The translations under genes and the position numbers were made by a program. From Candidatus Saccharimonadales bacterium (GTDB lineage: Bacteria; Patescibacteriota; Saccharimonadia; Saccharimonadales; DATKHC01): DNA of 53,190 nt. The stretch covers positions 1 through 53,190 of the forward strand of contig DATKHC010000014.1 of assembly GCA_035510465.1 (NCBI GenBank). Direction: 5' to 3'. Shown one piece after another: positions 23,895 to 53,190 of the stretch (position 1 is its first letter; every line of letters starts with the position of its first letter). The notes beneath the pieces are model-generated. The model saw only the letters and a list, made by a program, of their open reading frames with translations. It was not told the DNA's origin and ran no database searches.

Positions 23895-24011
23895 CTACCC
23901 CTGTCTCTGCTTATGGCGAGGTTTAAGTTTATTGATTATATAAACCCGTCCTTTACGACGGACGATCTTATCATCTGGACTTATTTTCTTGACGCTAGCA
24001 CGAACTTTCAT
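23895..24011 (-). CDS. rpmJ: 50S ribosomal protein L36, Zn-free form (below the ORF-track length cutoff)
   Basis: Manual translation: [38 protein letters not shown]. Confidence 0.96.
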
Positions 24012-24061
24012 AGAAGCCACTCTTCCTCGCTTAATGGTTTATTTTGGTGGATAATGTTTGT

Positions 24062-33957: not shown

Positions 33958-33958
33958 C

Positions 33959-34573
33959 TTATTTAACCCCCTTTATTAGTACAATTGAGCGTTTAGGACC
34001 GGGGATTGCGCCAGCTACGCCAATTAGGCCTTTTTCGTCGTCAACTACCGATATTTTGAGGTTTTTTACCGTAACACGCTCAGCACCCATCTGACCTGAC
34101 ATTTTCTTACCTTTGAATACCTTTTGTGGATACATAGAACCGATAGAACCAGGTCGGCGATAACTTCGGCCACCGTGAGTCTTTCGACCTCTGTGAAAAT
34201 TGTGCCGCTTGATTGTTCCGGCGAAACCCTTTCCTTTTGATGTACCGACAGCGTCAATCAGATCACCAACAGCAAAACTACCGGCGCTTACTTGCTGACC
34301 GGTAGTTTCAATATTGTCTTCACCTTCTGGAATCTTAAACTCTCGCAAGACGCTAACTAGTTTTTCAGCGTTTTTAAGATGTCCAGTTTCGGGTTTTGAT
34401 AACTTCTTCTTTTCAAATGCACCAAGTTGGACTGACAAATAACCATCTTTTTCGATAGTTTTTACTTGGGTTACGGTATTCGGGGCAGCAACAAGATAGG
34501 TAACAGCCTCAACAGCTCCGTTGTCGGAGATGATACTGCTCATGCCAAGTTTTCTTGTAACTAAAGCTTTCAA
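33959..34573 (-). CDS. rplC: 50S ribosomal protein L3 (TTG start)
   Basis: SKGKGFAGTIKR, RRPGSIG. Confidence 0.97.
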   Translation of the reverse strand: MKALVTRKLGMSSIISDNGAVEAVTYLVAAPNTVTQVKTIEKDGYLSVQLGAFEKKKLSKPETGHLKNAEKLVSVLREFKIPEGEDNIETTGQQVSAGSFAVGDLIDAVGTSKGKGFAGTIKRHNFHRGRKTHGGRSYRRPGSIGSMYPQKVFKGKKMSGQMGAERVTVKNLKISVVDDEKGLIGVAGAIPGPKRSIVLIKGVK

Positions 34574-34692
34574 CTTAGTTTTATGCCTTCCTACTTTACG
34601 ACGTACATTAAATAAACCGGCGAGTGGTGGTATCTGTTATTTGGCCAGACCTGCTCAACTACACCAGGTATTTTTTAAGCAAATACTATAAA

Positions 34693-34722
34693 AGATTAGC
34701 ACATTGCTATTCCCCTAGTCAA
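34693..34722 (-). promoter_or_regulatory. Putative internal promoter between rpsJ and rplC (TTGACT-N18-TAATCT, extended TG)
   Basis: 170-bp intergenic gap; the following leader carries an ACCTG/CAGGT hairpin at 34649-34669. Confidence 0.5.
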
Positions 34723-34743
34723 TTGTTGTTTTTATTACTTAGG

Positions 34744-35085
34744 CTACATTTTTATCTCTGCGTCGCAGCCAGCAGGCAGAGATAGGTTCATAAGAGAGTC
34801 TATAGTCTTTGGAGTAGGTTCAAATACATCAATTAGTCTCTTATGAACACGCATTTCGAATTGTTCCCGCCCTTTTTTGTAAACATGAGGACTTTTAACA
34901 ACTGTGTAGACCGTTCTATTGGTTGGAAGTGGTATAGGACCAGCTATTTGCGCCCCTGTTCTAAGCGCTGTATCTACGATCTGTTTAGCAGACTGATCAA
35001 TAACCCGGTGGTCATAAGCTTTTAGTCTAATTCTAATACGCTGTCTTGCGGCTTCAGGTTTTTTTGACTCAGTTGTGGTTGCCAT
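34744..35085 (-). CDS. rpsJ: 30S ribosomal protein S10
   Basis: [17 protein letters not shown]. Confidence 0.98.
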
Positions 35086-35099
35086 TGACTGTTTCGATC

Positions 35100-36281
35100 T
35101 TACTTGACGATTTTGGTTACAACACCGGCACCAACAGTTCTACCACCTTCTCGGATAGCGAACCTAAGTCCTTGTTCCATGGCAATTGGTGCGAGTAGTT
35201 TAACTTTGAAAGTGGTTGTATCACCAGGCATGATCATTTCTTTGTCAGCTGGTAACTCTACTTCACCTGTAACGTCAGTGGTTCGGAAGTAAAACTGAGG
35301 TTTGTAGCCTTTGAAAAATGGTGTGTGACGACCGCCTTCCTCTTTAGTAAGGATATAGACTTCGCTATCAAATTCAGTATGTGGAGTAACTGTACGTGGC
35401 TTGGCAAGAACTTGCCCGCGCTCGATGTCAGTTCGCTCGACTCCTCGCAGCAATATTCCAACGTTATCACCAGCTTGACCTTGGTCAAGGTTCTTTTTAA
35501 ACATCTCGACACCCGTAACAACACTCTTTTTAGTAGGACGAATTCCTACAATCTCTATTTCCTCGTTAACTTTGACGACACCCTGTTCGATACGACCTGT
35601 CGCAACTGTTCCTCGTCCTTTGATTGAAAAGATGTCTTCAATTGGCATTAAGAAAGGCTTATCAAGTTCTCGCTTTGGCTCTGGAATATACTCGTCCATT
35701 TTGTCGAGCAGTTCCATAATAGAGTCTTCATTCTCTTTATCACCAGCCAAAGCTTTAGTAGCTGAGCCTTTGATGATAGGAGCATTCTCGTCGAAGTCGT
35801 TCTTTTTAAGCAGTTCTCGGATATCCATTTCAACCAGTTCAACTAGCTCTGGATCAGCAATGTCCATTTTATTCATATAAACAAGGATTGAAGGTACGCC
35901 AACCTGACGAGCAAGTAGAACGTGCTCTCTAGTCTGAGGCATTGGTCCATCAGCCGCGGATACGACCAATATGGCGCCATCAACCTGGGCAGCGCCTGTA
36001 ATCATGTTCTTAATGTAATCAGCGTGTCCTGGCATGTCTACGTGAGCGTAGTGACGCTTTGCAGTCTCATATTCTGAGTGGTCAGTCGCAATAGTAATAC
36101 CACGCTGCTTTTCCTCTGGAGCGTTATCTATTTCTTCGTATGATCTAGCTTTATTTATATCTGATGGCTGTCGCTTTGATAAAACAGTATTTATCGCTGC
36201 GGTTAGTGATGTTTTACCGTGGTCAACGTGTCCCAAGGTGCCAACATTTACATGCGGTTTGTCTCTTTTAAAATCTGCCAT
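35100..36281 (-). CDS. tuf: Elongation factor Tu
   Basis: [25 protein letters not shown]. Confidence 0.99.
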
Positions 36282-36348
36282 TTGGGTCTGACTCCTTTTA
36301 TAAATTAATTAACATGAGCAACAATAGCTCAAAAGAGTTATAACCAAT

Positions 36349-36377
36349 ATTCTATCTGATAAATAGCGTTTTGTAAA
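36349..36377 (-). promoter_or_regulatory. tuf promoter TTTACA-N17-TAGAAT
   Basis: Followed by a leader with SD AAGGAG. Confidence 0.65.
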
Positions 36378-36448
36378 CAGTTGTTTCAGAGTAAAATTCA
36401 GATTTCTTTTTATCTATATTTTAGGATTCTCATAACTCATCGTGAACA

Positions 36449-36805
36449 CTATGTGACACTTTCGGGGTTTTGATCCTCGTCAAAGTAAGCATCTACAGGT
36501 AATTGGTTTCTGTCCCTAAGTGACGTTTCTCCCAGTACTCCGCCAGCACCAACAAGCGAGAGAATTCCGCCAAGACTTTCAAGCACCAACTCGGTTATAT
36601 CCTCAGTCGTATTAGGTTTTGGAGCCTCGACTTTCAGAAGTACTGACGCACCTAACATTAATAACCCTGCTGATAAAATAGTCCCCCACTTATTTAAGCG
36701 ACGACTATGTCTCCTTGAGTTATGAGTACTCTCCATACCATCACGAACCACCTCCAATTTAAAAGGAGTAGGTACTTTATCAATAGACCGCTCATAAAAA
36801 CTCAT
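36449..36805 (-). CDS. Two-TM hypothetical protein inserted between fusA and tuf
   Basis: 118 aa; own promoter TTGCAG-N17-TAAAAT (36842-36814) 8 nt before ATG. Confidence 0.6.
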   Translation of the reverse strand: MSFYERSIDKVPTPFKLEVVRDGMESTHNSRRHSRRLNKWGTILSAGLLMLGASVLLKVEAPKPNTTEDITELVLESLGGILSLVGAGGVLGETSLRDRNQLPVDAYFDEDQNPESVT

Positions 36806-36864
36806 ATCGGGGTATTTTAACCCTGATAGATATAACCTGCAAGCATGTGCGGGATCTAAACTGC

Positions 36865-38952
36865 CTATTTTGCATTTTTTGAGATAATAGACTCAGCCAC
36901 GTTCGTAGGCACGTCGGAGTATCGATCTAGCTCCATAGAAGAGCTGGCTCTACCTTGAGTCATACTTCTAAGATTAGTTGTATAACCAAACATTTCTCCG
37001 AGTGGTACAAGGGCTGTTATCTCTTTTATTCCCGGAGATAAATCAACCATAGTTTCTATTCGACCACGCTTACTGTTTAAATCACCGATTACGTCACCCA
37101 TGAATGATTCTGGAGTAACAACAACTACTTTCATTATTGGTTCGAGTAGAACTGGACTAGCTTTTTTAACAGCTGCTTGAATAGCCATAGATCCAGCAAT
37201 TGAAAATGCTAACTCAGATGAGTCTACGTCGTGGTAACTTCCGTCGTATAGCTCGGCTTTAACATCAACAACTGGATAACCAGCGATCACTCCGTTAGCA
37301 AGCGCTTCTTCAATACCCTTTCTGACGGGAGTTATATATTCATGGGGGACTACACCACCTTTTATGCTATTAACGAATTCAAATCCCTTACCTTGCTCAT
37401 TTTGAAAGACCCTAAGCCAAACATGACCATATTGTCCCCTTCCACCTGTTTGACGGATAAACTTGCCTTCCGCCTCAACCCCGTCTTTTCGAATTGTTTC
37501 ACGGTAAGCAACTTGAGGCTCTCCGACATTTGCCTCAACGCTAAACTCACGTTTCATTCGATCAACGATAATTTCTAGGTGCAATTCACCCATCCCGCTA
37601 ATAATCGTTTGACCAGTTTCGTGATCTACTCGAATTCTGAAAGTAGGGTCCTCTTCACCTAAGCGCTGAAGTGCAAGACCCAGTTTTTCCTGGTCTGATT
37701 TAGTCTTGGGCTCAATAGCAATTGAAACTGGCGGTTCTGGGAACGTTATGCTCTCTAAAATAATAGGGTTTGATTGGTCGCAAAGAGTATTCCCTGTAGT
37801 AGTACCTTTTAAGCCAACAATGGCTGCTATGTCACCTGTACCAACCTCCGACACATCGGTTCGGTCATTAGCCTGCATCCTAACTATTCGACCAATGCGT
37901 TCTTTTTCACCAGTGGAACTGTTTAAGATATAGCTACCTGATTTAACCTTTCCAGAATATACTCTGAAAAAGGCTAGCTTACCGACAAAGGGGTCGGTGG
38001 CAATCTTAAAGGCTAACGCCGAGAAAGCCTGCGTCTCTTCGGGTTTTCGCTCTATTTCATCACCGGTTTTAGGTTGCGTACCCCAAGTTGACCCACGATC
38101 AATCGGACTTGGTAGAAAATCTACTACTGCATCGAGTAGTTTTTCGACTATTACGCCTCTGCCATCCCCGCCACTTACAGCAAAGAATTTACCACTCAGG
38201 ACCGATGCCCGGACAGCAGAACGAACCTCATCTTCTGAAAGTCCTTCTTCCCCAACTTCGAAATACTTCTCCAGTAGTTTCTCGTCTTCAGTTATTGCAT
38301 TTTCAATTAGAAGTGATCGATACTTCTTAACCTGGTCAGCCATATCAGCTGGGATTTCACCTTCACTTACCTCATGATCTGAAAAATCCTTATAGGTGTA
38401 TGACTTTAGGCTAATCAGATCGACCACACCGGATACTGACTGCTCAAAACCGATCGGCAAATGAATGGGGAACGCCTGTTTTGACAAACGCTGATGGATA
38501 GATTCAAGTGATTTGTAGAAATCACCGCCAGTTTGATTTATCTTGTTAATGAAACAGATTCTAGGAACACGGTATTTATCTGCTTGTCGCCAAACAGTCT
38601 CGGATTGGCTCTCAACGCCCATTTTGCCATCAAAAACAACTACAGCACCGTCAAGTACTCGAAGTGAGCGTTCAACCTCTACCGTAAAGTCAATGTGTCC
38701 AGGGGTATCGATTATGTTGACTTTGTGATTTTTCCAATAACAAGTAACAGCCGCACTGGTAATCGTAATTCCACGTTCACGTTCCTGTTCCATCCAGTCG
38801 GTAGTAGTTTCACCCTCATGAACCGCGCCGATCTTATGTTTTAAGCCAGTACGATACAGGATGCCTTCGGTAGTAGTAGTTTTACCGGCATCAATGTGCG
38901 CAATAATTCCAATATTCCGCAACTTATCTAATTGATATCTAGTTTCCGCCAC
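36865..38952 (-). CDS. fusA: Elongation factor G (GTG 38952 preferred; ORF track start 38967)
   Basis: [28 protein letters not shown]; AAGGA upstream of the GTG. Confidence 0.98.
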
Positions 38953-39223
38953 CTGCAATTCCTTCAACTATCATTTTTTGAATAGATAATCCATCATGAC
39001 CACAACCTGACCTCCTGAGCAATGCTTCAGCTTCTTGTGCTGATTGTGTGACAAGTGTTCCTGCTTGTCTCAAAGACTCTTCTTGAGGTCGACCGTCGAA
39101 AGAATCTCCTTCTGCGCCTACCAAAACTCTCATACCGCGTTCCTCGCCTATAACTGTATTTAGAACAGCAAAACACATATCTGGCTGCTCACATGAATCG
39201 CAAGCTTCAAACCATGCACTCAT
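38939..39223 (-). CDS. Putative Cys-containing hypothetical protein filling the rpsG-fusA gap
   Basis: ATG 4 nt after the rpsG stop; 94 aa [18 protein letters not shown]...RSGCGHDG; 3' end overlaps the fusA start. Confidence 0.45.
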
Positions 39224-39227
39224 ACAA

Positions 39228-39707
39228 TTAATACCTAGCAAAGTGAGCAAATGCCCTGTTAGCATCTGCCATTCTATGCGTATCTTCTTTTTTCTTAACT
39301 GCACTGCCGGCGCCACCATAAGCATCGACTAACTCTGCGGCAATTCTTTTATCCGTGCTAATTCCGCCACGAGAACGTACTGCAGCCACAAACCACATAG
39401 TAGTGAGGTGAACTTGTCTTTGACCTTTTACTTCAAAAGGTATCTGATAATTAGCTCCCCCGACACGTCTTGAACGGGTTTCGGTGTGTGGTCGAATATT
39501 ATTCATGGCTCTATCGAAAACTTCGATTGGGTTTTGAACTTTTAGTTTGTCGGCAGCTTGTTGCATACCAGCATACATTAACTTCTCTGCCATCTGTTTT
39601 TTGCCACCTAGCATAACACGGTTAATGACTCTTTGGACTGCGACTGAATTATAGAGTCTATCAGCTGGGATTGGTCGAGTTAGTGATTTTGTCTTCTTCC
39701 TCGGCAT
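39228..39707 (-). CDS. rpsG: 30S ribosomal protein S7
   Basis: RRVGGANYQIP, HRMADANRAFAH. Confidence 0.98.
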   Translation of the reverse strand: MPRKKTKSLTRPIPADRLYNSVAVQRVINRVMLGGKKQMAEKLMYAGMQQAADKLKVQNPIEVFDRAMNNIRPHTETRSRRVGGANYQIPFEVKGQRQVHLTTMWFVAAVRSRGGISTDKRIAAELVDAYGGAGSAVKKKEDTHRMADANRAFAHFARY

Positions 39708-39709
39708 TA

Positions 39710-40120
39710 CTATGACCCTTTCTTGGTCCCATATTTACTACGTCCATGAGTTCGTTTGCTTACGCCAAGCAGATCAAGATGACCCCGGACGATATGGTAA
39801 CGGACACCTGGTAAGTCTTTAACTCGGCCGCCTCTTACTAAAACAACTGCGTGTTCTTGAAGATTGTGACCTTCACCACCGATGTAAGCCCATACTTCTT
39901 GACCATTAGTTAGGCGAACACGGGCTACTTTTCGAAGAGCTGAGTTAGGTTTCTTTGGAGTCTTTGTGGTTACTTTTATACATACTCCTCTTTTAAATGG
40001 AGCTGGCCGCTCATAGGATTGGTTTTTTATATTGTTAACAACTTTAAGCATAGCCGGTGACTTAGACTTTGTGGTCACCTGGTGCCTCGGCTTGCGTACT
40101 AGTTGATTAATTGTTGGCAT
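39710..40120 (-). CDS. rpsL: 30S ribosomal protein S12
   Basis: [21 protein letters not shown]. Confidence 0.98.
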
Positions 40121-40140
40121 AGTAGATTAGTTAACCAGAT

Positions 40141-43100
40141 TTACTCCTCAGCGTCAACGCTGTCGGACTCCTTAGAATAGGGCGAATGGCCATAACCAGT
40201 TCCAACTGGTATAAGCCGACCCAAAATAACGTTCTCTTTTAAGCCAAACAAATGGTCAACTTTACCGCTTGTTGCAGCAGCAATTAGAACCCTTGTTGTG
40301 TCCTGGAAACTAGCTGAGCTTAAGAATGAGTCGGTTGTTAGGCTTGCTTTGGTAATACCAAGTAGTAATTGGCTATACTTGATCGGTTTCTTATTCCCGC
40401 GAACCAGTTGATCATTAACCTCGACTACCGACAATTTACTGGCAATATCTCCTGTAACGAACTCACTATCTCCAGCTTCCTCAATTTGAACTCGACTAAA
40501 CATCTGTCTAATTATGATTTCCAAATGTTTATCGGCGATGCTCTGACCTTGTGAGGCAAAGATACGCAAGATTTCATTCATTATGTAGCGCTGAGTTGCT
40601 TCAATGCCCTTTAATGCCATCAAATCATGAAGGTTAATAGAACCATTGGTAAGCATCTGTCCTTTTTCGACCTGCCCACCGTCTTTAACCAATATCTGAC
40701 GATAGCCAGGGATATCATGTCTAACTACACTCTGTTCTGAGCGTACAATGACTGCCTCTTTATCAGTGAACTCAACTATTCCAGAAACAGGAGCGAGTAG
40801 CGGCTCTATTGTGCCTTTAGCTTTGGCAGAAGCTAGGATGTCGCCAACTGCCACTAAACTCCCGCCATCTAGTTGTGGTTTACGGTTTTTAAGAGGAAGT
40901 TTGGTTGATTTGCCTTTATCGTCGAGGGCTGTAATCTGAACGACATAGTGATCAGCTTCCTCCCATACATTGACGGTTCCGCTGATATCGGCAAGCACTG
41001 CTTGTCCTTTTGGTGCTCTAACTTCAAACAACTCTTCAACTCGAGGTAGACCAGTCGTAATATCCTCGCCAGCTACACCACCCGCATGGAAGGTCTTTAG
41101 GGTAAGCTGCGTACCTGGTTCACCGATACTTTGAGCAGCAATTACGCCAACAGGGTGATGTGACGCAACTAGCTCGCCGGTTGCTGGGTCAATCCCGTAG
41201 GACTTCCTGGAAACTCCACGGACACTAGTAGCTGATAGTGCACTTAAGATACGTACTCCATCAATTGATTTATCGGCATCAATTTTCTCAGCAACTTCTT
41301 TTGTTATTAGCTCGCCTGACTTTATTAGTTTATTAACTGGTCCGGCTGTGAAACGTCCTTCGAGTCGAGACGCGTAGCTAACACCGACTTCTTTGGCATC
41401 GCCACGGTAGACCGGGAAACCTGGATCATCATCTTGATCGTCAATCGTGAACACATCTTGAGACACGTCAACCAGTCGTCTGGTCAAATAACCTGAGTCG
41501 GCAGTCTTTAGAGCTGTGTCAATTAATCCTTTTCGAGCTCCACGGGCAGCTGTGAAGTATTCCAGTGGAGTTAAACCTTGCTTATAGTTACTCCTAATTG
41601 GCAGCTCAATGGCTCGACCAGTTGTGTCGGCCTGAATTCCAACTGTACCGACGGTCATTTTTACCTGTCCAATACTGCCTCTAGCACCTGACAACACTGC
41701 TATCGACATCGATGAATCCTGCTTAGTAAATTGGTTGACTAGTAACTCTTGAATTTTGTTATCAGCTTCCATCCAGATCTCAACGGTTAGTCGATATCGT
41801 TCGGAATTATTGATAAGCCCTTCGTTATACTGATCAGCAACAACTTTAGCCTTTTCTTCAGCAGCGGTAATTTCTTCATCCATACCGTCGATATCGTTGA
41901 AGTCACCCATACCCATAGATAGTCCTGATACGGTTGCGTAATTAAAGCCGAGTTGCATTAGTTTGTCAGCGATTTCAGCAGCTTGGGCTTGGCCATACAT
42001 AGCGTAAGCAGTTGCCATAGCGCTTTGGAGTTTCTTCTTAGACATGGATTCATCTAAGAATGGGAAATCATCTGGGAAGATCTCATTGAACAAGAATCGT
42101 CCAAGTGTGCTCTCGTGCTTTGAACCCCGGAAATTTATTCTTATCCTGCTATGCAGAGTAATAATTCCGGCGTCGTAAGCCATTAAGGCTTCATGAAGAG
42201 ACGAGTAAGGACGGATTTTATTCATTTCTTCAGTCGATCGGTCATATGTTAAGTAATAACAACCGAGCACGATATCTTGTTCGATGTGTAGTATTGGCGA
42301 ACCGTCAGCTGGTTTCAGCAAGTTCTTGTTACTAGCCATGATTTCTCTGGCTTCTTTTTGTGCATCATCAGAAAGAGGTAAATGAACTGCCATTTGGTCA
42401 CCATCGAAATCTGCGTTAAAGCCTTTACATACCAATGGATGTAGTTGAATAGCTTTCCCCTCGATCAGAACCGGCTGGAAGGCTTGGATACTTAGTCTGT
42501 GAAGACTTGGAGCTCGGTTAAGAAGGACATACTTACCTTTAATTACTTCATCAAGTGCGTCCCAAACCGCTGTTTCACCCAGTTCGATCATTCGAGTGGC
42601 TGAGCGTATATTGTGAGCCTGGTCATTATGGATCAAGTGTCCAATTACAAATGGTTTGAACAGTTCAAGCGCCATCATCTTCGGGAGACCACATTGGTAA
42701 ATTCGAAGCTCAGGTCCTGAAACAATAACTGATCGGCCCGAGTAATCTACTCTTTTTCCTAACAAGTTCTGCCTGAATCGACCCTGTTTACCCTTTAGCA
42801 TGTCGGATAGTGACTTAAGTCTGCGGTGTTGGCCAGTTGCGGCAACGGCTCGACCTGAACGAGTACTATTGTTATCAATCAAAGCATCGACTGCTTCTTG
42901 AAGCATTCGCTGTTCGTTTCGTCTAATAACCTCAGGAGCTTTCAACTCAATTAACTTCTTTAGTCGGTTGTTTCGGTTGATTACGCGGCGATATAGATCA
43001 TTTAGGTCGGAGGTAGCAAATCGGCCACCAGTTAACTGAACCATTGGACGCAGATCTGGGGGAATCACTGGAAGTACTGTAAAGCACATACTACCTGGCT

Positions 43101-43965
43101 TAATGCCAGCTCGCTGCATTGATTCAAGAAGTCGCAGTCGCTTCATTAGTTTCTTTTTACGCTGACCTTTTGCCTCTTCAGATTCTTTGGATAGTTGTTC
43201 GATTAAAGTGCTTAGATTAATTTCATCAAGAAGTTCCTTGATTGCGACTCCACCCATACCAACTTTTATAAGCGAGGATACTTCCTCAGGAAGGAACCGG
43301 TAATCGTTTTCAGAAATCAGATTTAGTTTTTCGAGCGCACTTAGCTGATCTTTGACAGCTGCGTAGTTAGTAGTCAGCTCTTCAATTTCTTTAGTTTGCA
43401 TCTCTGCTAGAGCTTTAATGTTAGCGTTTTCAGCTTTTGCTTCAGATTCAAAACGCAGTTTGATAGCTTCTTTAGCAGCATTAAACTCAGCTTCTTTCTC
43501 AGCAATCATTTGGTCACGCTTTTCACGATCAACCTTGGTGATTATGTAAGCTGCGAAATAAACTACTCGCTCTAAATTCTTAACTGTCATTCCAAGAAGC
43601 AGTCCAATTGCGGAAGGAGTTCCACGCAGGAACCAAATGTGCGCAACTGGAGTAGCTAGATTAATGTGGCCCATTCGCTCACGTCTAACGATAGACTTGG
43701 TAACCACTTCACCGTTCTTATCGACAGCCGCTTCACGGCTTCTAATACCTTTATATTTGGCATCGTGAGGATTGATGTCTTTAACGGGACCGAAAATTCG
43801 CTCACAGAAAAGACCATCTCGCTCAGGTTTTTGAGTTCTATAGTTAATAGTCTCGGGTTTAGTTACCTCACCATAACTCCACTCCAAAATATCCTCAGGG
43901 CCTGCTACCGCTAATCGAACAGCGTCGAATTCGGCAATATTTGTTCCGGTATTGTAATTTCTCAC
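40141..43965 (-). CDS. rpoC: RNA polymerase beta' subunit lacking all Zn-ligand cysteines (GTG start overlapping the rpoB TGA)
   Basis: [39 protein letters not shown]. Confidence 0.99.
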
Positions 43966-46900
43966 GCCTGTTCCTCCTTTAAATCTTCATCAATATTCGA
44001 TATCACTGCAGCATCGTCGAGTGGGATGTTGTCGTCACTAACCTGAGCAGCATCACCACCCGTGCCATCATCCGGCAGCGGTTCATCCAGTCCCACAACA
44101 GAAAATTCATTCACACTAACGTCTTCAGTAACGTCAATGCCAGAAATTTCGCTGTCAGGTACATCTACTTTAGATGCATGCTTTGCTTCGTCTTCTATGC
44201 TGCTAGCTAGTACTTCTTCGGCATCAACTATCTTGTTGGATGTAATTAGATCCACCTTCAAACTCAGTCCTTGAAGTTCCTTAACTAAGACATTGAAACT
44301 CTCTGGAACTTTTGGACCAACGATCTCAGTGCCCTTAATAATAGACTCGTAAGCCTTGGACCTTCCATAAACATCGTCTGACTTGATAGTTAGCATTTCT
44401 TGGAGTGAATAGGCTGCTCCATAAGCTTCTAGGGCCCAGACTTCCATCTCGCCAAATCTCTGACCACCATTTTGAGCTTTTCCACCAAGTGGTTGTTGGG
44501 TAACCATTGTGTATGGACCAGTTGAACGAGCGTGGATTTTATCAGTTACCATGTGCTCTAACTTGAGTACATGCATAACGCCAACAACTGTTCGTTCTTT
44601 AAACTTCTCACCTGAACGTCCATCATACAATTCTTGCTTACCGTCTTCTGGAAGACCTGCCTTACCAAGAAGTTCACGGATCTTTTCAATGGAGACTCCG
44701 TTAAATGGTGGTGTGGCTATTTTAAGCCCGAGAGCCGTAGCAGCCATACCAAGGTGAGTCTCAAACAACTGACCAATGTTCATTCTAGAGGGGACACCCA
44801 TAGGGTTAAATACGATATCAACAGGTGTGCCGTCTGCCAAAAATGGCATGTCAGCAATTGGCAGTACTCTTGCGATAACACCCTTGTTACCGTGTCGGCC
44901 AGCTAACTTATCACCAACTTGAATCTTTCGCATCTGGGCAACAAAAACTTGGATCTGCATAATCACACCGGATTTAAGTTCATGACCTCTTTCTCTTGAG
45001 AATATTTTGACGCCAACAACTTTTCCGTGTTTACCATTGCTCATGCGTTCTGAAGTATCACGTACTTCCTTGGCTTTTTCACCAAAGATAGCTCGAAGTA
45101 ATCTCTCTTCGCTGCTTAGTTCCTGTTCGCCTTTTGGCGTAATCTTTCCAACTAGTATATCTCCAGGGTGAACCTCAGCACCAATTCTAACGATACCGTC
45201 CTCATCTAGATGTCTTAATACCTCATCCGAGACATTAGGGATGTCGCTAGTAACAATTTCAGGTCCAAGCTTTGTTTCACGAACCTCAACCATGAAGTCC
45301 ATAATATTAATAGAGGTGAATACATCTTCCTGGACTAAACGCTGTGAAATAATTATGGCGTCTTCGAAGTTATAGCCATTCCAAGGCATAAATGCGACCA
45401 TTACGTCACGACCTAGGGACAATTCTCCGCCACTAATACTCATTCCTTCGATTAACGGTTGCCCCTCAACTACTTTGTCGCCGGAGCTGACTACAACCTT
45501 CTGGTTCATTGAAGTGCCTTCGTTACTTCTTTGGAAGTGCAGCGGGTAGTATGTTTGGCTGTGATTTTTGTATTTAACTATGACTTCGTCGGCCACAGCT
45601 TTAGTTACAACTCCGTTTTCTTCAGCAACAATAAGTTGTGAAGTGTTTAGGGCTAGGGTTCTTTCAAAGCCAGTCCCAATTGTAGGAGACACAGGATTAA
45701 CAAGTGGTACGGCTTGCTTTTGTTGGTTAGCACCTACTAGTGCGCGGTCTACTCGGTCCTTTTCGATAAATGGAATAAGCGTCGCGTTAGCACCAATAGT
45801 CTGGTTAGGAGTGGCGTCAAGGTGAGTAACCTGATTAGAGTCAACCTCACCAGTCACCAAACGATTCCTAGCACTTACTCGCTCATCAACAAAATAACCT
45901 TCCTCGTCAAGCGCACTGTCAGCACTGGCGATTACAGCGTTTTCCTCTTCAGCAGCATCCAAAAACAAGATTTCATCAGTCACTCTAGCCTTAACGGGCC
46001 AGGTTACTTGATTCTTAACACTAGCTAGCTGTTTCGCAGCAGCTGCAGTAATTTTCTTGCCGGCAGCGACAATCAGCTTACCTTTTTCAGTTTCTAAATT
46101 AACAGCAGCAACATATCCAACTGCATCTTTGGCGGTAACTGCGTTAACTACTTTTCTATATGGTGTCTCAATAAAACCAAAGTCATTAATTCTGGCATAG
46201 CCAGCAAGATTTAATACTAGTCCAATATTTGAACCCTCAGGGGTTTCTACAGTACAAATACGGCCATAGTGAGTGGCGTGAGCATCACGAACTTCAAATC
46301 CGGCTCTCTCCCTACTCAAGCCTCCTGGGCCCATTGAACTTAGACGTCGTTTGTGAGCAAGTTCAGAAAGCGGGTTAATTTGCTCCATGAACTGAGAAAG
46401 CTGAGATATTGCGAAAAATTCACGAACAGCTGCAACTACAGGTCGAGCATTAATTAATTGAGCAGCCGTAACGGTCTCGATCTCGTTCATGCTCATGCGG
46501 TCTTTGGTATTCCTTTGCATTCGAAGTAGACCGATTCTAAACTGCCTCTGGACAAGCTCGCCTACTAATTTAACTCGGCGGTTAGCCAAAGAGTCAATGT
46601 CGTCAGCAGGATCTTGGGTATTATTAAGTCGAATGATCTCAGCAACGATAGCGATTAGGTCCTCAAGTCGCATGACTCGGTTCTCGATAGTATTTGGAAC
46701 CTTAAGATCAAGTCGTTTGTTTATCTTATAGCGACCTACTCTTGAAAAATCAAAGCGCTGGAAGTTATAAAGCATGTTCTCGATAAGAGATCGAGCGTTT
46801 TCGACTGTTGCGAGATCACCTGGTCGCAAACGACGATAGATTTCAATTAGGGCGTCATTAGTTCCTCTAGCTGGGTCTTTTTTAAGAGTAGTGTCAACGT

Positions 46901-47555
46901 AGCTCAATTTTCCCTGATCTACGTGCGCAAAAGCCTCGTGAATCTGTTTTTCGTTCATTCCAAGTGCTTTTAGTAGAGTCGTGACAGGAATTTTACGTTT
47001 ACGGTCGATTTTGACATACAATACACCAGCTGTGGTGGTTTCAAATTCAAGCCAAGCTCCACGGTTTGGAATAACTTTGGCTCCGTATAGGTTAGTTGTG
47101 CCCTGGTTGTCGGCAGTGAAGAATACTCCGGATGAACGAATTAACTGACTTACAACAACTCGCTCAGCTCCATTGATAACGAAAGTACCCCGACTAGTCA
47201 TCCATGGGTAATCACCAAGGTATATCTCTTGCTCTTTAATTTCACCAGTAACTTTATTAGTAAGCTCGACTTTAGCTTTTAAGGGTGCCTCGAATGAGAC
47301 ATTATTTATCCGTGCTTCACCTTCTGTCATTTTCGGATCTTCGAAATGATAATCTTTGAATCTTAGTGACAACTTAGTGCCGGTATAGTCGTCGATTGGA
47401 CTAATTTCGGCAAATAAATCACTGAGTCCCTCTTCTACTAGCCATTTAAAGGACTTGCTCTGATGATCCACTAGGTTTGGTAAATCTAGTAGTTTATCAG
47501 TCTTACTAAAATATGTTCTGTTTGAAATGTCGCGCGTGGAGGTGACGCCTGCCAT
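43962..47555 (-). CDS. rpoB: RNA polymerase beta subunit with acidic C-terminal tail (ATG 47555; ORF track start 47561)
   Basis: SQLSQFM, GDKLAGRHGNKG, GQRFGEME. Confidence 0.99.
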   Translation of the reverse strand: MAGVTSTRDISNRTYFSKTDKLLDLPNLVDHQSKSFKWLVEEGLSDLFAEISPIDDYTGTKLSLRFKDYHFEDPKMTEGEARINNVSFEAPLKAKVELTNKVTGEIKEQEIYLGDYPWMTSRGTFVINGAERVVVSQLIRSSGVFFTADNQGTTNLYGAKVIPNRGAWLEFETTTAGVLYVKIDRKRKIPVTTLLKALGMNEKQIHEAFAHVDQGKLSYVDTTLKKDPARGTNDALIEIYRRLRPGDLATVENARSLIENMLYNFQRFDFSRVGRYKINKRLDLKVPNTIENRVMRLEDLIAIVAEIIRLNNTQDPADDIDSLANRRVKLVGELVQRQFRIGLLRMQRNTKDRMSMNEIETVTAAQLINARPVVAAVREFFAISQLSQFMEQINPLSELAHKRRLSSMGPGGLSRERAGFEVRDAHATHYGRICTVETPEGSNIGLVLNLAGYARINDFGFIETPYRKVVNAVTAKDAVGYVAAVNLETEKGKLIVAAGKKITAAAAKQLASVKNQVTWPVKARVTDEILFLDAAEEENAVIASADSALDEEGYFVDERVSARNRLVTGEVDSNQVTHLDATPNQTIGANATLIPFIEKDRVDRALVGANQQKQAVPLVNPVSPTIGTGFERTLALNTSQLIVAEENGVVTKAVADEVIVKYKNHSQTYYPLHFQRSNEGTSMNQKVVVSSGDKVVEGQPLIEGMSISGGELSLGRDVMVAFMPWNGYNFEDAIIISQRLVQEDVFTSINIMDFMVEVRETKLGPEIVTSDIPNVSDEVLRHLDEDGIVRIGAEVHPGDILVGKITPKGEQELSSEERLLRAIFGEKAKEVRDTSERMSNGKHGKVVGVKIFSRERGHELKSGVIMQIQVFVAQMRKIQVGDKLAGRHGNKGVIARVLPIADMPFLADGTPVDIVFNPMGVPSRMNIGQLFETHLGMAATALGLKIATPPFNGVSIEKIRELLGKAGLPEDGKQELYDGRSGEKFKERTVVGVMHVLKLEHMVTDKIHARSTGPYTMVTQQPLGGKAQNGGQRFGEMEVWALEAYGAAYSLQEMLTIKSDDVYGRSKAYESIIKGTEIVGPKVPESFNVLVKELQGLSLKVDLITSNKIVDAEEVLASSIEDEAKHASKVDVPDSEISGIDVTEDVSVNEFSVVGLDEPLPDDGTGGDAAQVSDDNIPLDDAAVISNIDEDLKEEQA

Positions 47556-47738
47556 AAGCAAATTACTCCCTATTAAACTTATTCACATTTTCTGTTGTTT
47601 TTTTAGTGCGCGAAGCTCACTACTAAGGGATTTTTGGTGTAACTTTTAGCAAAAACTAGCACTGCCCGACGTATTCTACTTCTTACATACTAGTTTGAGT
47701 AACTTGGCCTTAATTGTCAAGCTTTTTAGCAAAAAATC

Positions 47739-48455
47739 TCAATCTTTTCTGGGCGATGCTAAGGGCTTCTTTTTATTACTTTTCCAGTCATATGGATCAG
47801 CATTTCCGTTTACCCCATTAGAGGTACGCCTGGGCCTATCTGCCAAACCAACCACACGGCGACCACTTCCAGTCTTTACTGCGTGTTGTGGGCGTCTTAA
47901 TTCCCTTTCCGTGGCAGCATCGTCTCTCCTGTTCTGTCTTTCATCTAATATCTTTTTTCTTAGTAGAGCTGTGCTTTGTGCGGCAGGAGACCAGGGATCC
48001 ATACCTTGGTGATATGAGTGCCTAGCTCCTATGAAAGGACGCCTTCCAACCTCTTGTAGGGCAGCGCTCCCTATAGCCGCGGCTGCAGTCAGAGCAAGCC
48101 CAAGGCCATTCTCGTATGTTGCAGACGCTCCGACTACTGACAATGCAAGTGCGCCGGGCCAGTCAAGTAGTCCATCCACTAATCTTCTAATACGCCTGCT
48201 CCTGGTACCCTCATCGGCTTCTGCTTCCCTGATAATTTCCAGATCACCGTCTATAATATCGGCTTCAGTTACGACGTGGGGAGCTTCTGGCTCCTCGGTA
48301 ATGCCAGAGATCAGGCGTAAATGCCCAATCTTTATCTCGGGTTTAGGTATCGGGGCAGGAGGCGTTGGTACGTCTTGTTCCTCAATAGGACCTATTAAAT
48401 AATCTCGTTGTCTGCCGTTAGTACCTACTGACGAGACCCAATTTCCAAATTCCAT
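47739..48455 (-). CDS. Hypothetical membrane protein (ORFan)
   Basis: 238 aa; two hydrophobic Ala-rich helices; promoter TTGCAA-N16-TATGTT (48489-48462) 6 nt before ATG. Confidence 0.6.
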   Translation of the reverse strand: MEFGNWVSSVGTNGRQRDYLIGPIEEQDVPTPPAPIPKPEIKIGHLRLISGITEEPEAPHVVTEADIIDGDLEIIREAEADEGTRSRRIRRLVDGLLDWPGALALSVVGASATYENGLGLALTAAAAIGSAALQEVGRRPFIGARHSYHQGMDPWSPAAQSTALLRKKILDERQNRRDDAATERELRRPQHAVKTGSGRRVVGLADRPRRTSNGVNGNADPYDWKSNKKKPLASPRKD

Positions 48456-48511
48456 AACAATAACATACCATATAACTCTGATATTGCAAACTTAAGCGCT
48501 TTTTTTCTTAT

Positions 48512-49141
48512 CTATGGGGTTTTTAGATTCTTTATAACGCCGTCAACCAAACCGTATTCCTTAGCCTCACTGGCGCTCATGTAATAATCTCTTTCCATAT
48601 CGGCGTGCAACTTAGCTGGTTTCTGTCCGGTGTTTTTAGCCATTATCTCTTCGAGTTGTTTCTTAATCTTTAAGGATTCTTCTAGGTCAATTTCCATATC
48701 GGTAACCCGACCCCTTGCAGCAGAGGAAGGTTGGTGGATCATTACCTTACCATGCGGCAAGATAAAACGCTTGCCCTTTGCGCCACTACTAAGTAGAACT
48801 GCAGCAGCTGAAGCGGCAATACCAACGGATATGGTTTGTACATCCGATTTTACATAATTCATAGTGTCATAGATCGCTAGGGCACTATAAACACTTCCGC
48901 CTGGACTATTGATGTATATGGAGATATCCTTTTTCGAGTTTTCACTATCAAGGAATAACAGTTGGGCTACAACCAGGTTAGCGACGTGATCGTCAATGGG
49001 GGAACCTAAGAAGATAATTCTATCCTTTAGTAGCCTAGAGTAAATATCATAAGCTCGTTCAATTCGACCATCACTTTCAATAACTGTAGGGATTAAAATT
49101 TGGCTTGTTGGGTTTAGCATATTAGCTGGTTCTCCATTCAT
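48512..49141 (-). CDS. clpP: ATP-dependent Clp protease proteolytic subunit (ATG 49141 preferred; ORF track start 49171)
   Basis: [27 protein letters not shown] (Ser), MIHQP (His), ERD (Asp). Confidence 0.97.
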
Positions 49142-49160
49142 AATATATATGATAACTTTA

Positions 49161-49187
49161 TTAGCACTCACTAGTCAAGAGTGCTAA
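49161..49187. promoter_or_regulatory. Perfect CIRCE element (HrcA operator) overlapping the clpP -35 box
   Basis: TTAGCACTC-ACTAGTCAA-GAGTGCTAA; on the minus strand TTGACT lies in the spacer and TATCAT at 49154-49149. Confidence 0.93.
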
Positions 49188-49206
49188 TTTACAGATACAT
49201 CTAGTG

Positions 49207-50157
49207 TTATTCTGACCCTTCAGGCCTATCGCCATCGTCTTTATCAAGCGTATTCGATGCGACCCTTTTTAACAGCTTCTCCACGTTAGCGCGTATAACT
49301 TCCTCAAGTCCTAGCCCAAGCGACCTATTGGCGATAAACGCTATCTCTAAATAAATCTGTCCAATTAGTTCTCCGGCTTGTCGGCTCTGCTCGTCGAAAC
49401 TAGATCCTGTCATATTCTCGGTATAACCGTCTTCTAGCCGCCCAAATTGTGCTCTAGACCCGTTAATCAGTTGGAGACACCAACCCGCCAGGTTTCCAAA
49501 GTGGCCAATTTCATCATCCTCTTCCTCGTCAGCATCGTAGACATTCATTACGGGTGACCTTAAAGGTTCAAAGCCTTCTTCAATCACTTCATCTACGTCT
49601 CTTATGTATGCTTGTTCAAACTTAACGGCCAGATCTGCTACTGGTTGTCTCCACCTAGGTTTAATGACCTGGGATGACTTAAAGTACTGTGCGCCCATTA
49701 GGTACCTAAATAACCTGACTTTTAGGCCTGAATCAATATCCGCGTTGACGCAGCACGCCAGAGTTGTAACACACCAGAGTACATCGCCACATTCAAGCAA
49801 CACTTCGTTTCTTGATTCCGGAGTATCTACGCCTTCGCGTTCAAGCGTAAACATTGCTGTAGCTAACTCACCAACTTCTTCTCTTAACTTTTCTCCAAAA
49901 CGTTCGACTGCAGCAAAAGTGCCTTGTTCTTCCTTCCAGGCCGTTTCAGCCCAACGTTGATAATCTAGGATACTTGCGAAAGGATTCTCGAGTAATACTG
50001 TTTTCAACTCATCAGGATCCACATCTACGTCACCGCGGTAGTACAAACCATCGTTAAATACGGGGGGAGATAGTTCTCGAGCATGTGTGCTTGTGTATAC
50101 ATGCTCATCCAGTGGTTCAATTCCACTATATCCACCTGGTCTATTATGAAATACCAT
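49207..50157 (-). CDS. MazG-like all-alpha NTP pyrophosphohydrolase with internal expansion
   Basis: YQRWA..TA, LREEVGEL, LLECGDVLW, and C-terminal LEEVIRANVEKL..R. Confidence 0.7.
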   Translation of the reverse strand: MVFHNRPGGYSGIEPLDEHVYTSTHARELSPPVFNDGLYYRGDVDVDPDELKTVLLENPFASILDYQRWAETAWKEEQGTFAAVERFGEKLREEVGELATAMFTLEREGVDTPESRNEVLLECGDVLWCVTTLACCVNADIDSGLKVRLFRYLMGAQYFKSSQVIKPRWRQPVADLAVKFEQAYIRDVDEVIEEGFEPLRSPVMNVYDADEEEDDEIGHFGNLAGWCLQLINGSRAQFGRLEDGYTENMTGSSFDEQSRQAGELIGQIYLEIAFIANRSLGLGLEEVIRANVEKLLKRVASNTLDKDDGDRPEGSE

Positions 50158-50269
50158 TTTCTTATATATATCATATTTCTGTAATTATTCAACTGTCATG
50201 GGATAGTCACCATACGCTAGCCAGACACATTGACAGTATCTAGCAGAGACATCCAGTACTTAAAAGAAC

Positions 50270-51556
50270 CTAGGATGACATTAGAGATATGATATGTCGG
50301 ATGGTTTTTTCAGCCATTATTCTACTTGCAACGCCCCTTTTGGTTTCGTCTTTAGATAGTTCGTCTTGTGATTTCTCGTCAGTATACTGTTTCCTCATAA
50401 GATCAATACGACCATCAATTTCTTGATTTAAAACCGTGATTCCTTCTCGCTGGCTAATCTCGGATAAAACAATGCTTGCTTTTACTTGTCCTTCAGCTTG
50501 AGGTTTTAATTCAGACTTTCTAAATTCTTCTTCTGTTTTACCTTCGGTTTCAAGAAATTCAGCTATAGTTTGCCCTCTGTAGAGAAGATTTTGTTTGAGA
50601 TCGCTAAACTTGCGCTCTATCTCTTCATCAACCAGTATGTCAGGAATGGAAAGCTTTGACTTGTCTGTAATCTGCTTTAATATTTCCGACTCGTAAGCCA
50701 TCTCAGATTGGTCACGATTTTCTTGGGTCAACCGAGCCTTAATATCTGCTTCAAGCTCATCAACTGTCTTAAAAGGACTAACTTTTGCAACAAAATCTGG
50801 GTCAAGTTTAACTTTCGCAATCTCCTCAACCTTAATAATATGGACAGAGAAAGTTACTTGTTTGCTGGCAAGAGCAGCTATTCGGTAATCTTTAGGAAAT
50901 TTGAGCTCGAATTTCTTATCCTCATCGGCCTTTAAGCCTATCAAATTAGTTTCAAATCCTGGGATGAAATTGTCACTACCGAGCACTAGAGGATAGTTCT
51001 TGCCTGATCCTCCATTTATCGGTTTACCGGATTTATCTGTACCATAAAAATCAAACCAGACCTGATCACCTACCTTAGCAGCTCTTTTTACTTCAGATCT
51101 ATCGGCTACCGACGTTTGCAGTTGGGATATAACCTTCGTGATGTCGTCAGCAGTTACAGGTTTAACCGTCGGCTTAGAGATTTTCATATTCCTATAGTCT
51201 GGAATAGTAACATCGCTTATAACCATCTGATTAACCTTAAACTCCAAAACATCAAACGGCACTACCTTCATAACTTCTATCTTCGGTTGCCCAACGGGTC
51301 GGATGTTCTCCTCTTGAGTGGCGTTGTAATAGAGTTGATTTATAGAGTGTTCTAAAAACTCTCTGTTTAGTTGATCACGATCAACGTTTTTCTCGACTAT
51401 ATTTAGCGGGACCTTACCCTGTCTAAATCCAGACACTTTAACTGAGCCCACAAAATCTTTCAGAACATGCTCCTTAACCTTGGCTAGCTCCTCAGGTTCT
51501 GCGGTTATATAAAGTTCAACTTCAGTTTCTGATTTTTGGGTACGTTTAATCTTCAT
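50270..51556 (-). CDS. tig: Trigger factor
   Basis: GFRQGKVP, LGSDNFIPGFE..L.G. Confidence 0.96.
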   Translation of the reverse strand: MKIKRTQKSETEVELYITAEPEELAKVKEHVLKDFVGSVKVSGFRQGKVPLNIVEKNVDRDQLNREFLEHSINQLYYNATQEENIRPVGQPKIEVMKVVPFDVLEFKVNQMVISDVTIPDYRNMKISKPTVKPVTADDITKVISQLQTSVADRSEVKRAAKVGDQVWFDFYGTDKSGKPINGGSGKNYPLVLGSDNFIPGFETNLIGLKADEDKKFELKFPKDYRIAALASKQVTFSVHIIKVEEIAKVKLDPDFVAKVSPFKTVDELEADIKARLTQENRDQSEMAYESEILKQITDKSKLSIPDILVDEEIERKFSDLKQNLLYRGQTIAEFLETEGKTEEEFRKSELKPQAEGQVKASIVLSEISQREGITVLNQEIDGRIDLMRKQYTDEKSQDELSKDETKRGVASRIMAEKTIRHIISLMSS

Positions 51557-51578
51557 AGATTTTAAACTTTAACAGATA

Positions 51579-52907
51579 TCAACTGAGCAGGCCATCTTTT
51601 CGAGAAGTCCTATTGTCTTTAACGATGGATACAATCCTCTCAATCGAGTGCTTCTCCTCTTCGCCGGTTTGTAGGTTTTTGAGTGTATATTGCTCCGAGT
51701 CCAACTCTTTCTCGCCAATGATAAGGACGAATTTATAGCTCTGCTTACTAGCTGATTTCAGTTGTTTATCTAGTTTGGAACCAGAACTGTCAACGGCAAT
51801 ATTTATACCCATACCCCTAATGTCTTTTAAGAGTGGCTGGGCTTTTAAGTAAACATCACCTGCAAGGGCCACAAAAAGATCAACCCCGAGGGTTAATTTT
51901 GGCGTAAGCCCGTGTGCTTCAATAAAGTTCGCTAACGACACATCACCCATTCCAAATCCGACTGAATCTACTGGTCTCGCCCCAAATAGTTCAACCAATC
52001 CTTGGTAACGTCCTCCACCAAACATTGAACGGTTATTCGAAGGATCCGTATCATAAACCTCAAATACAATGTCACTGTAGTAGTCAAAGCCTCTCATAAG
52101 AGTGATATCAAAATCGAAGTTCTTTATTTTTGACTTTTCAAGCATCGTGAATAATCTTTGTAAGTTGGCGACTGATTCATAGCTCTTAAGATCTGCTGGT
52201 AGGTCGTAGATGGAGTTAACTTTGAGCAAATTTAGTAACTTCTTGCCGGTTCCGGCCTCTCGCTGCGATGGATTTATTAGCATGTCCACTTCGGTAGCAA
52301 ACTCTGCATACTCTATTTTGTGCATATGATCGATAAGTTTCATTAGACCGCTAACTTGGGTTGCTTCAAGCTCCAAGTAATCGATTAGTATGTGATTGAT
52401 TAATTTGCGGCTGTTTACCTTAATACTGTAGTTAGATGATTTGGCTCCATATGCCTTCAAAATCGAATCAGCAATCGCAATAATCTCATGGTCGCCCTCT
52501 ATGCCTGCTACCCCGAACAGATCAACATTTAGTTGCCAGTGCTCTCTTAATCTGCCTTTTTGAGGCCTTTCATAACGCCAGACATTAGCTATACAGTACC
52601 AACGCAGTGGGTACGCCAAATCTTGTCTTTTCGCAGCTAGGATCCTGCTTACACTCGGTGTCATCTCAGGCCTAATGACGACTTTTCGTCCACCTCTGTC
52701 ATCAAATACATAAGTTTGATCATTGACTATCTCACTACTGGTTTTTGCGAGATACATCTCAAGCGGTTCAATTAAAGGAGTCTCGTATTCTTGGTAGCCA
52801 TAGCGTTCAACTACCTTTCTCATGACGGAGAAAAGGTAGTTCTGGAACCGCTTATCTTCAGGGTAGAAGTCTCGTGTGCCTTTGTATGGGTTAGTCGATA
52901 ATGCCAT
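51579..52907 (-). CDS. hisS: Histidine-tRNA ligase
   Basis: KGTRDF, RPEMTP, WRYERPQKGRLRE, RGFDYY, GGGRY. Confidence 0.98.
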   Translation of the reverse strand: MALSTNPYKGTRDFYPEDKRFQNYLFSVMRKVVERYGYQEYETPLIEPLEMYLAKTSSEIVNDQTYVFDDRGGRKVVIRPEMTPSVSRILAAKRQDLAYPLRWYCIANVWRYERPQKGRLREHWQLNVDLFGVAGIEGDHEIIAIADSILKAYGAKSSNYSIKVNSRKLINHILIDYLELEATQVSGLMKLIDHMHKIEYAEFATEVDMLINPSQREAGTGKKLLNLLKVNSIYDLPADLKSYESVANLQRLFTMLEKSKIKNFDFDITLMRGFDYYSDIVFEVYDTDPSNNRSMFGGGRYQGLVELFGARPVDSVGFGMGDVSLANFIEAHGLTPKLTLGVDLFVALAGDVYLKAQPLLKDIRGMGINIAVDSSGSKLDKQLKSASKQSYKFVLIIGEKELDSEQYTLKNLQTGEEEKHSIERIVSIVKDNRTSRKDGLLS

Positions 52908-53060
52908 GGATCTTTAGAATAGCTTAACTTGATCTGTTTTACAGCTTATTAATATCAGGTTTAATGATAACTCGAAACGATAGAGTTTAGCTATATATAG
53001 ATCATATGTATTTTTGAATTCATCAACGATGTGGTTATGAAGTACTGGTGCGTAATTAGC

Positions 53061-53189
53061 TCAGGACCTTTGCAACATTTCAGCGGGTGTTCGGTACTGT
53101 AAGCTAGAGTGTAATCTTTCATGGTTGTAGTAAGCAAGATAGTCTTCTAACTGGTTATGTATTGTCTCTGGTTTAGGGAATGATCTATG
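53061..53189 (-). mobile_element. 3' end of an IS3/IS481-type integrase-core transposase (truncated by window end)
   Basis: Manual translation: HRSFPKPETIHNQLEDYLAYYNHERLHSSLQYRTPAEMLQRS*; YN..R.HSSL.Y.TP is the rve C-terminal motif. Confidence 0.8.
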
Positions 53190-53190
53190 T

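Follow-up and report, generated by a model that had tools for sequence, protein, structure and literature searches.

Cysteine-less zinc sites in the RNA polymerase beta' subunit of the order Saccharimonadales

The rpoC locus and its two zinc-site regions

We analyzed a 53,190-nucleotide contig of a Candidatus Saccharimonadales bacterium (DATKHC010000014.1, assembly GCA_035510465.1; the whole stretch is called the window below) and found in it an rpoC gene whose product, the beta' subunit of RNA polymerase (RNAP), has lost all eight cysteines of the two structural Zn(Cys)4 sites of this protein. The first site (Zn1) lies in the N-terminal zinc-binding domain (ZBD) and the second (Zn2) farther along the chain. 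The features concerned are:

40141..43965, minus strand: rpoC, RNAP beta' subunit, a single-copy open reading frame of 1274 amino acids with a GTG start that overlaps the end of rpoB
43699..43791, minus strand: cysteine-less counterpart of the ZBD (a zinc ribbon), residues G59-T89, placed by gapless alignment to solved beta' chains
43768..43770, minus strand: P66 (CCT), at the position of E. coli C70 in the alignment
43762..43764, minus strand: D68 (GAT), at the aligned position of E. coli C72
43723..43725, minus strand: V81 (GTC), at the aligned position of E. coli C85
43714..43716, minus strand: N84 (AAC), at the aligned position of E. coli C88
41200..41436, minus strand: cysteine-less region of the second zinc site, placed by a phmmer alignment and a 21-sequence alignment

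In all other respects the gene encodes a regular beta' subunit. The protein matched the NCBIfam equivalog model for rpoC (TIGR02386) over its full length with 1398.8 bits, against a cut-off of 963.5, and contained all five Pfam Rpb1 domains (1-5) as well as an intact catalytic Mg-binding motif (NADFDGDQM). A search of its own genome returned one match. It is, therefore, the normal and sole rpoC of a genome of the Saccharimonadales (Saccharibacteria/TM7, Patescibacteria), and its membership in the RpoC family stands without the Cys4 sites, which are near-universal in the family but do not formally define it. The cysteines might also only seem to be missing, through an error in sequencing or assembly, because the gene is a pseudogene, or because the genetic code is an alternative one. 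We found no evidence in support of such an artifact and consider its probability negligible: the 1274-residue frame is intact with every catalytic motif in place, the same residues recur in hundreds of independent assemblies, and the codons CCT, GAT, GTC and AAC are ordinary sense codons that each differ from TGY at two or three bases. Furthermore, the codons for C54 and C425 in the same gene are read normally.

Residues 6-143 of the protein formed a gapless phmmer alignment with the solved beta' chains 8i23_D and 7l7b_D. Together with the reading of the codons, this alignment bore out what a preliminary description of the window had claimed from the sequence, namely that all four ZBD cysteines are replaced relative to E. 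coli with no gap in the alignment. The pattern CxC...CxxC of a Cys4 ZBD is absent, and P66, D68, V81 and N84 stand at the ligand positions. The E. coli segment quoted for comparison was also accurate, as the beta' sequences of Alteromonas, Herbaspirillum and Undibacterium (loci L172, L176 and L177) read identically. The coordinates given at the time (43699-43785) had the correct start but not the correct end, because the 31-residue segment spans 43699-43791 on the minus strand and a boundary at 43785 drops its first two residues. Translation of 43693-43791 on that strand yields residues 59-91. The segment shares with canonical bacterial beta' its position, length and flanks (ERIFGP...), as well as five basic residues (K74, K76, K79, R81 and K87 in the canonical protein; K70, K72, R75, R77 and K83 in the window). 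It differs in the absence of the Cys ligands, as does Zn2, and in the loss of the aromatic W and Y beside the zinc site. About half of the domain has been rewritten (16 of about 30 positions) while its length was kept exactly, and the new sequence begins DINPHDAK[YLF]KG[VIM]. Two cysteines that are not ligands, C54 and C425, are retained in all five beta' sequences of the order in the 21-sequence alignment. Thus, there was no general removal of Cys from beta'.

The second site has also lost its Cys4 set. The positions of E. coli C814, C888, C895 and C898 are occupied in the window by Q844, A912, S919 and S922, respectively. The replacement residues at Zn2 differ between families (V/A/T/Q, D/T/A, S/P and S/A), unlike those at Zn1. 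Many close relatives carry a lone Cys at the C888-equivalent position (consensus ALSCTS), which is Ala912 in the window (41230-41232, minus strand). Markov et al. are said to have implicated the second beta' zinc site in assembly, in a study from 1999.

The neighboring genes are arranged as follows, with rpsL directly adjoining rpoC on its downstream side:

43962..47561, minus strand: rpoB, RNAP beta subunit, directly upstream of rpoC in the same operon (TIGR02013, 1454 bits; NF001616, 1476 bits)

Distribution and origin of the cysteine loss

In a collection of 5.8 billion proteins, all of the 120 closest homologues (81-89% identical over residues 1-200) had no Cys in the ZBD segment, and those that carry a name are assigned to Candidatus Saccharimonadales, Saccharibacteria or Patescibacteria. 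The same was true of every same-order locus retrieved from 400 sampled genomes of the phylum (22 of 22, from 8 families); the CxC...CxxC pattern was kept in the two members of other orders of the class that were retrieved and in five other members of the phylum. We also scanned the class with a Cys-bearing 45-residue segment as the probe. This separated about 276 genomes of the order, which matched at 64% identity or less (E values of 1e-8 to 5e-13), from about 107 genomes of other orders, which matched at 73-100% identity (1e-21 to 1e-29). Three apparent exceptions (G472, G461 and G038) were rejected as truncations at contig ends, and one of them (G472) still reads WQCYCGKYKG.

A full-length alignment of 21 beta' sequences extended the contrast to both sites. 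All eight zinc-ligand columns showed Cys in each of the 16 outgroup sequences, which represent 13 other families of the class as well as 3 other classes, and none did so in any of the five sequences from the order. Among 79 named genome loci with a readable segment, the 6 metagenome-assembled genomes (MAGs) of Saccharibacteria were Cys-less and the 73 others were Cys-bearing, with all four ligand cysteines in 72 of these. Chance is excluded as the cause of the missing Cys. The exception among the 73, with three of the four cysteines, is a Candidatus Paceibacterota MAG (DATJQA010000074.1; L121:1501-2607), whose beta' reads KDYECDSAKYRR, with Ser at the second ligand position. In this unrelated beta', the ZBD zinc site may have undergone a partial change of its own.

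The maximum-likelihood tree of beta' recovered the order as a clade with 100/100 support and a stem of 0.31, and its sister clade (families f10, f166 and f169) is Cys-bearing. A supported Cys-less clade next to a Cys-bearing sister indicates that both sites were lost once; all eight cysteines disappeared on the stem branch of the order. Half of the lineage-defining substitutions in the protein (17 of 34), scored at positions with an almost uniform outgroup whose residue is absent from every member of the ingroup, concentrate in the zinc regions, 10 of them in residues 66-90 and 7 in the second region. Additional lineage-defining changes lie outside the zinc sites: F233I, A235V and I237M (43255-43269, minus strand) and W292S (43090-43092, minus strand), the latter within the conserved PEWM motif. 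These four substitutions may compensate for the remodeled ZBD.

A search of 1.84 billion cluster representatives gave 26 Cys-less matches, and all of them share the motif DINP...AVD[KR]xG, including the divergent proteins P0137, P0140 and P0141. As a sequence signature, this common motif fits a single origin. Three of the Cys-less proteins, P0140 (1387 residues), P0141 (1369) and P0136 (1326), are longer and more divergent and have variant ZBDs (INPHDSRFKRTRGRHIAVDKKG; INPFSHRYRGIRTREAAVDRSG). They could be deep branches of the Cys-less clade.

Selection, nucleic-acid contacts and fold of the remodeled domain

The codons of the new ZBD carry a strong signature of constraint. Pairwise comparisons among 28 species-level genomes of the order yielded 5995 synonymous and 1597 non-synonymous differences in the domain, and most of its codon positions use every synonymous codon without a change of amino acid. 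The residues that are invariant in 117 close relatives are P66, H67, D68, A69, K70, K72, G73, R75-A80, D82, K83 and G85. The ZBD is thus under strong purifying selection at an unchanged length and is not a decaying linker. This bears on neutral decay, in which the zinc sites would have been dispensable and lost by drift in a symbiont with small populations, leaving behind a tolerated linker. The variable replacement residues at Zn2, the lone Cys of ALSCTS as a relic and the reduced genomes of these bacteria (0.6-1.1 Mb) would suit such a history. We nevertheless regard it as very improbable, because the ZBD is among the most conserved parts of beta', its synonymous change is saturated, and the dN/dS (ratio of non-synonymous to synonymous rates) of about 1 expected from drift is contradicted. 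Moreover, four zinc sites in three abundant proteins changed on the same branch and low-copy zinc fingers persist, as described in the next section. For the loss as such, however, drift is the chief competing explanation; for the later conservation it is not.

The pattern of invariant residues also brings up the question of a substitute metal site, in which zinc or another metal would be bound via H67, D68 and D82, perhaps with N84 or E86. His and Asp are legitimate zinc ligands, and the three residues that the preliminary description had singled out for this role (H67, D68 and D82) are all among those invariant in the 117 close relatives; D68 and D82 are also each present in all 28 genomes of the order. 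Yet H67 is replaced by N in two of these 28 (G218 and G151, from two families), and the divergent Cys-less protein P0141 has F at position 67 and S at position 68. Zinc-bearing homologues have the same residues at positions 67 (H/Y) and 82 (D/E) without using them as ligands; these residues are therefore ancestral. P66 and V81 are incapable of metal binding. The candidate His/Asp ligands are, in sum, not conserved across the clade, and no Cys is available in the segment to make up the ligand set of a zinc ribbon. We consider this kind of site highly unlikely.

The basic residues of the domain followed a different course from its cysteines. Two of them correspond to residues that touch promoter DNA in E. 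coli:

43756..43758, minus strand: K70, equivalent to E. coli K74, invariant in the 117 close relatives and in 28 of 28 genomes of the order
43717..43719, minus strand: K83, equivalent to E. coli K87, invariant in the 117 close relatives and present in 27 of 28 genomes of the order

The other basic ZBD residues, K72, R75 and R77, are likewise retained. In E. coli, K74 and K87 of the ZBD contact the non-template strand of the promoter spacer, and both the K74A/K87A and the four-Cys-to-Ser mutants transcribe less from promoters with weak -35 elements (bioRxiv 10.1101/2020.01.02.893370). The authors did not succeed in deleting the domain in vivo (bioRxiv 10.1101/2020.01.02.893370). The same source also describes an influence of the ZBD on termination and antitermination (bioRxiv 10.1101/2020.01.02.893370, with King et al., 2004 cited there). 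The roles that had been ascribed to the domain at the outset (contact with promoter-spacer DNA, termination and antitermination) are thus correct. From the conservation of K70, K83, K72, R75 and R77, we infer that the ZBD of the order keeps a role in contacting nucleic acids.

The further proposal that promoter rules may differ in this lineage found no support. K70 and K83 are kept, and near-consensus -35/-10 pairs are enriched upstream of genes: a genome-wide search for TTGACA-N16-18-TATAAT (at least 10 of 12 matching positions) returned 44 sites upstream of genes versus 20 in the reverse complement and 18 in shuffled sequences, an enrichment of about 2.4-fold in what is a weak test. Within positions 33200-53190 of the window, a scan for consensus promoters and terminators was uninformative, with no enrichment over shuffled sequences. 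The loss of the cysteines probably does not reflect an altered reading of promoters.

Rho is reported to contact the ZBD, and its absence could be suspected as the reason for the change. None of 121 genomes of the class reached the cut-off of the Rho model (TIGR00767), the genome of the window and those of Cys-bearing orders included, and the weak matches to the model resemble other RecA-fold ATPases. We rejected the loss of Rho as the cause of the loss of Cys, as Rho is equally absent from the Cys-bearing orders.

A more radical possibility is that the segment has been re-folded and re-purposed, for example as a hairpin plus a short helix (SREAAVDK), with a lineage-specific partner or altered contacts and with differences in initiation or termination. 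Consistent with this, the 16 rewritten positions include aromatic residues near the zinc site (W and Y), S-x-x-E followed by N-G would resemble a helix capping box and C-cap, and the lineage also acquired F233I, A235V, I237M and W292S. The class-wide absence of Rho means that termination relies on intrinsic signals, and AlphaFold confidence is low precisely at the ZBD. However, the length of the segment is identical, the basic residues that in E. coli touch promoter-spacer DNA and nascent RNA are conserved, and genes have an excess of canonical -35/-10 promoters on their upstream side. Nor does the absence of Rho, being shared by the Cys-bearing sister orders, track the change in the ZBD. On balance, we find a re-folded domain possible but doubtful. 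With the 117 close relatives as input, the AlphaFold model of residues 1-400 was uninformative, as its predicted local distance difference test (pLDDT) score was about 30 over residues 26-103. Foldseek, applied to a model from a more diverse alignment, confirmed the N-terminal fold of beta' only.

The structural models also revealed a coiled-coil insertion of about 65 residues in beta' (residues about 143-210; window 43330-43540, minus strand). AlphaFold placed two helices in it (147-176 and 183-209), both with pLDDT above 90. The insertion aligns without a break to actinobacterial beta' (Mycobacterium tuberculosis, 6-637) and appears as a gap against the chains of Clostridia and E. coli. All of the top Foldseek matches of the N-terminal model were beta' subunits of Mycobacterium or Streptomyces. 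There is no Saccharibacteria RNAP among the solved structures, and the best matches in the PDB were Clostridia-type chains.

Ribosomal zinc proteins and the interpretation of the loss

The preliminary description had treated the change as the loss of a single site. The loss at the ZBD stands, but at least four zinc sites are affected: Zn1 and Zn2 of beta', and those of the ribosomal proteins L36 and L31, which are encoded at these positions:

23895..24020, minus strand: rpmJ, Cys-less L36 (KKISPDDK...INKLKP), best match 'type B L36'
32830-33063 of contig C16 of the genome: L31, long Cys-less type

L36 has no Cys in any of the 10 genomes of the order and carries CxxC...C in all 16 outside it, those of the sister clade included. 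In the order, S-P-D-D takes the place of its CxxC, and the likeness of this sequence to N-P-H-D in beta' suggests a parallel solution. L31 is of the long Cys-less type throughout the order (5 of 10 loci were read directly and the rest judged from the length and score of the match). Outside the order it is of the 4-Cys type in the 14 loci that were read by pattern, which include three genomes of the sister clade. Both are single copies, with one match per genome, and both lost their Cys at the same order-versus-outside split as beta'.

Other zinc proteins were spared. DnaJ, RadA and PriA retain Cys-rich zinc modules in the genome of the window and so, by inspection, do UvrA and a class II ribonucleotide reductase. 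We rejected the idea of a proteome that is globally free of Cys or zinc, given that Cys makes up 0.67% of its residues and that 23 proteins, DnaJ, RadA and PriA among them, have at least two CxxC motifs. For L32 (TIGR01031), the matches were too weak across the class to be scored.

We consider it likely, judging from the sequence evidence, that the order has a working, metal-free, remodeled ZBD in a polymerase that dispensed with both structural zinc sites. The core enzyme would then probably contain no structural zinc. The domain would still be a small, positively charged module on the RNA-exit and upstream-DNA side of the clamp, doing its usual work, with its fold held by ordinary protein interactions in place of zinc. 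Where the canonical domain has its knuckles CxC and CxxCG, the remodeled one would rely on the turn-forming sequences N-P-x-D (N-P-H-D in the window) and D-K-N-G, helped by small hydrophobic residues (P66, A79, A80 and V81), and acidic residues may stand in for the negative charge of the Zn(Cys)4 center. The reason would most likely be a constitutive cut in the demand for zinc, or in oxidation-sensitive Zn-thiolate, in the most abundant machines of the cell, its ribosome and polymerase. The combination of Cys-less sole copies of L36 and L31 with the zinc fingers kept in DnaJ, PriA and RadA makes an economy of zinc or Zn-thiolate the likeliest motive. The full scenario joins an order-wide zinc-free RNAP, acquired in one step with the changes in L36 and L31, to a constitutive stripping of Zn(Cys)4 that spared low-copy proteins and left the ribbon as a metal-free N-P-x-D/D-K-N-G mini-domain. 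Taken whole, it has in our judgment a modest edge.

Several points weigh against this interpretation. When 80 diverse sequences were used for AlphaFold, the pLDDT reached only 57-61 over residues 61-90 in a model with an overall score of 82.9 and a predicted template modeling score (pTM) of 0.78. The same model has short strands at 71-72 and 80-81, but S76-G85 could form a short helix instead of a ribbon. A non-thiolate metal site would also be compatible with the sequence, if at a low probability. The motive of zinc economy is read from the pattern of losses, and a similar pattern would arise from neutral fixation in symbionts with small populations. Finally, the order shares its Cys-less L33 and S14 with some other families of the class, from which it follows that the process was stepwise. 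In one genome of the order (G151, family f5; locus L225), L33 contains three Cys (VCENCG...KYCP), against none or one in all other members; the partial site is a relic or was regained.

The closest precedents are among ribosomal proteins and laboratory mutants. C+ and C- forms of zinc-ribbon ribosomal proteins were reportedly described by Makarova, Ponomarev and Koonin in 2001 ('Two C or not two C'). In the C- forms a Cys4 ribbon gives way to a Cys-less version, and the L36, L31, L33 and S14 proteins of the genome of the window are such forms. In most bacteria, however, C- proteins are extra, Zur-regulated paralogues beside a C+ copy, whereas L36 and L31 are sole copies here, and the change extends to RNAP, for which the papers searched describe no C- form. 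The beta' of the window shares the attributes of a C- form, with all ligands replaced, the replacements conserved under selection, and no other working copy of the protein, and may be viewed as analogous to the C- ribosomal proteins. It also resembles the E. coli 4CS mutant, whose beta' lacks the four ZBD cysteines. The laboratory mutant is defective at promoters with weak -35 elements (bioRxiv 10.1101/2020.01.02.893370), whereas the natural variant differs by about 12 additional substitutions and serves an entire order as its only, conserved enzyme. In the full-text literature that was searched, neither a Cys-less beta' nor a zinc-free bacterial RNAP is described.

If the interpretation holds, an entire order, including the cultivable human-associated TM7 group, uses a multisubunit RNAP that has no structural zinc. 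The two beta' sites are treated as near-universal in bacterial RNAP, and a large clade that lacks both is a natural experiment. It reveals which residues are able to take the place of a Zn(Cys)4 center and allows the need for zinc in folding and function to be tested. Such a domain could serve as a template for zinc- and oxidant-insensitive polymerases or ribbon domains. The coincidence with L36 and L31, with low-copy zinc proteins spared, would offer a testable case of constitutive zinc economy, or of avoidance of thiol oxidation, in ultra-small epibionts. In practical terms, the motif DINPHD...AVDKNG provides a simple sequence marker for the order.
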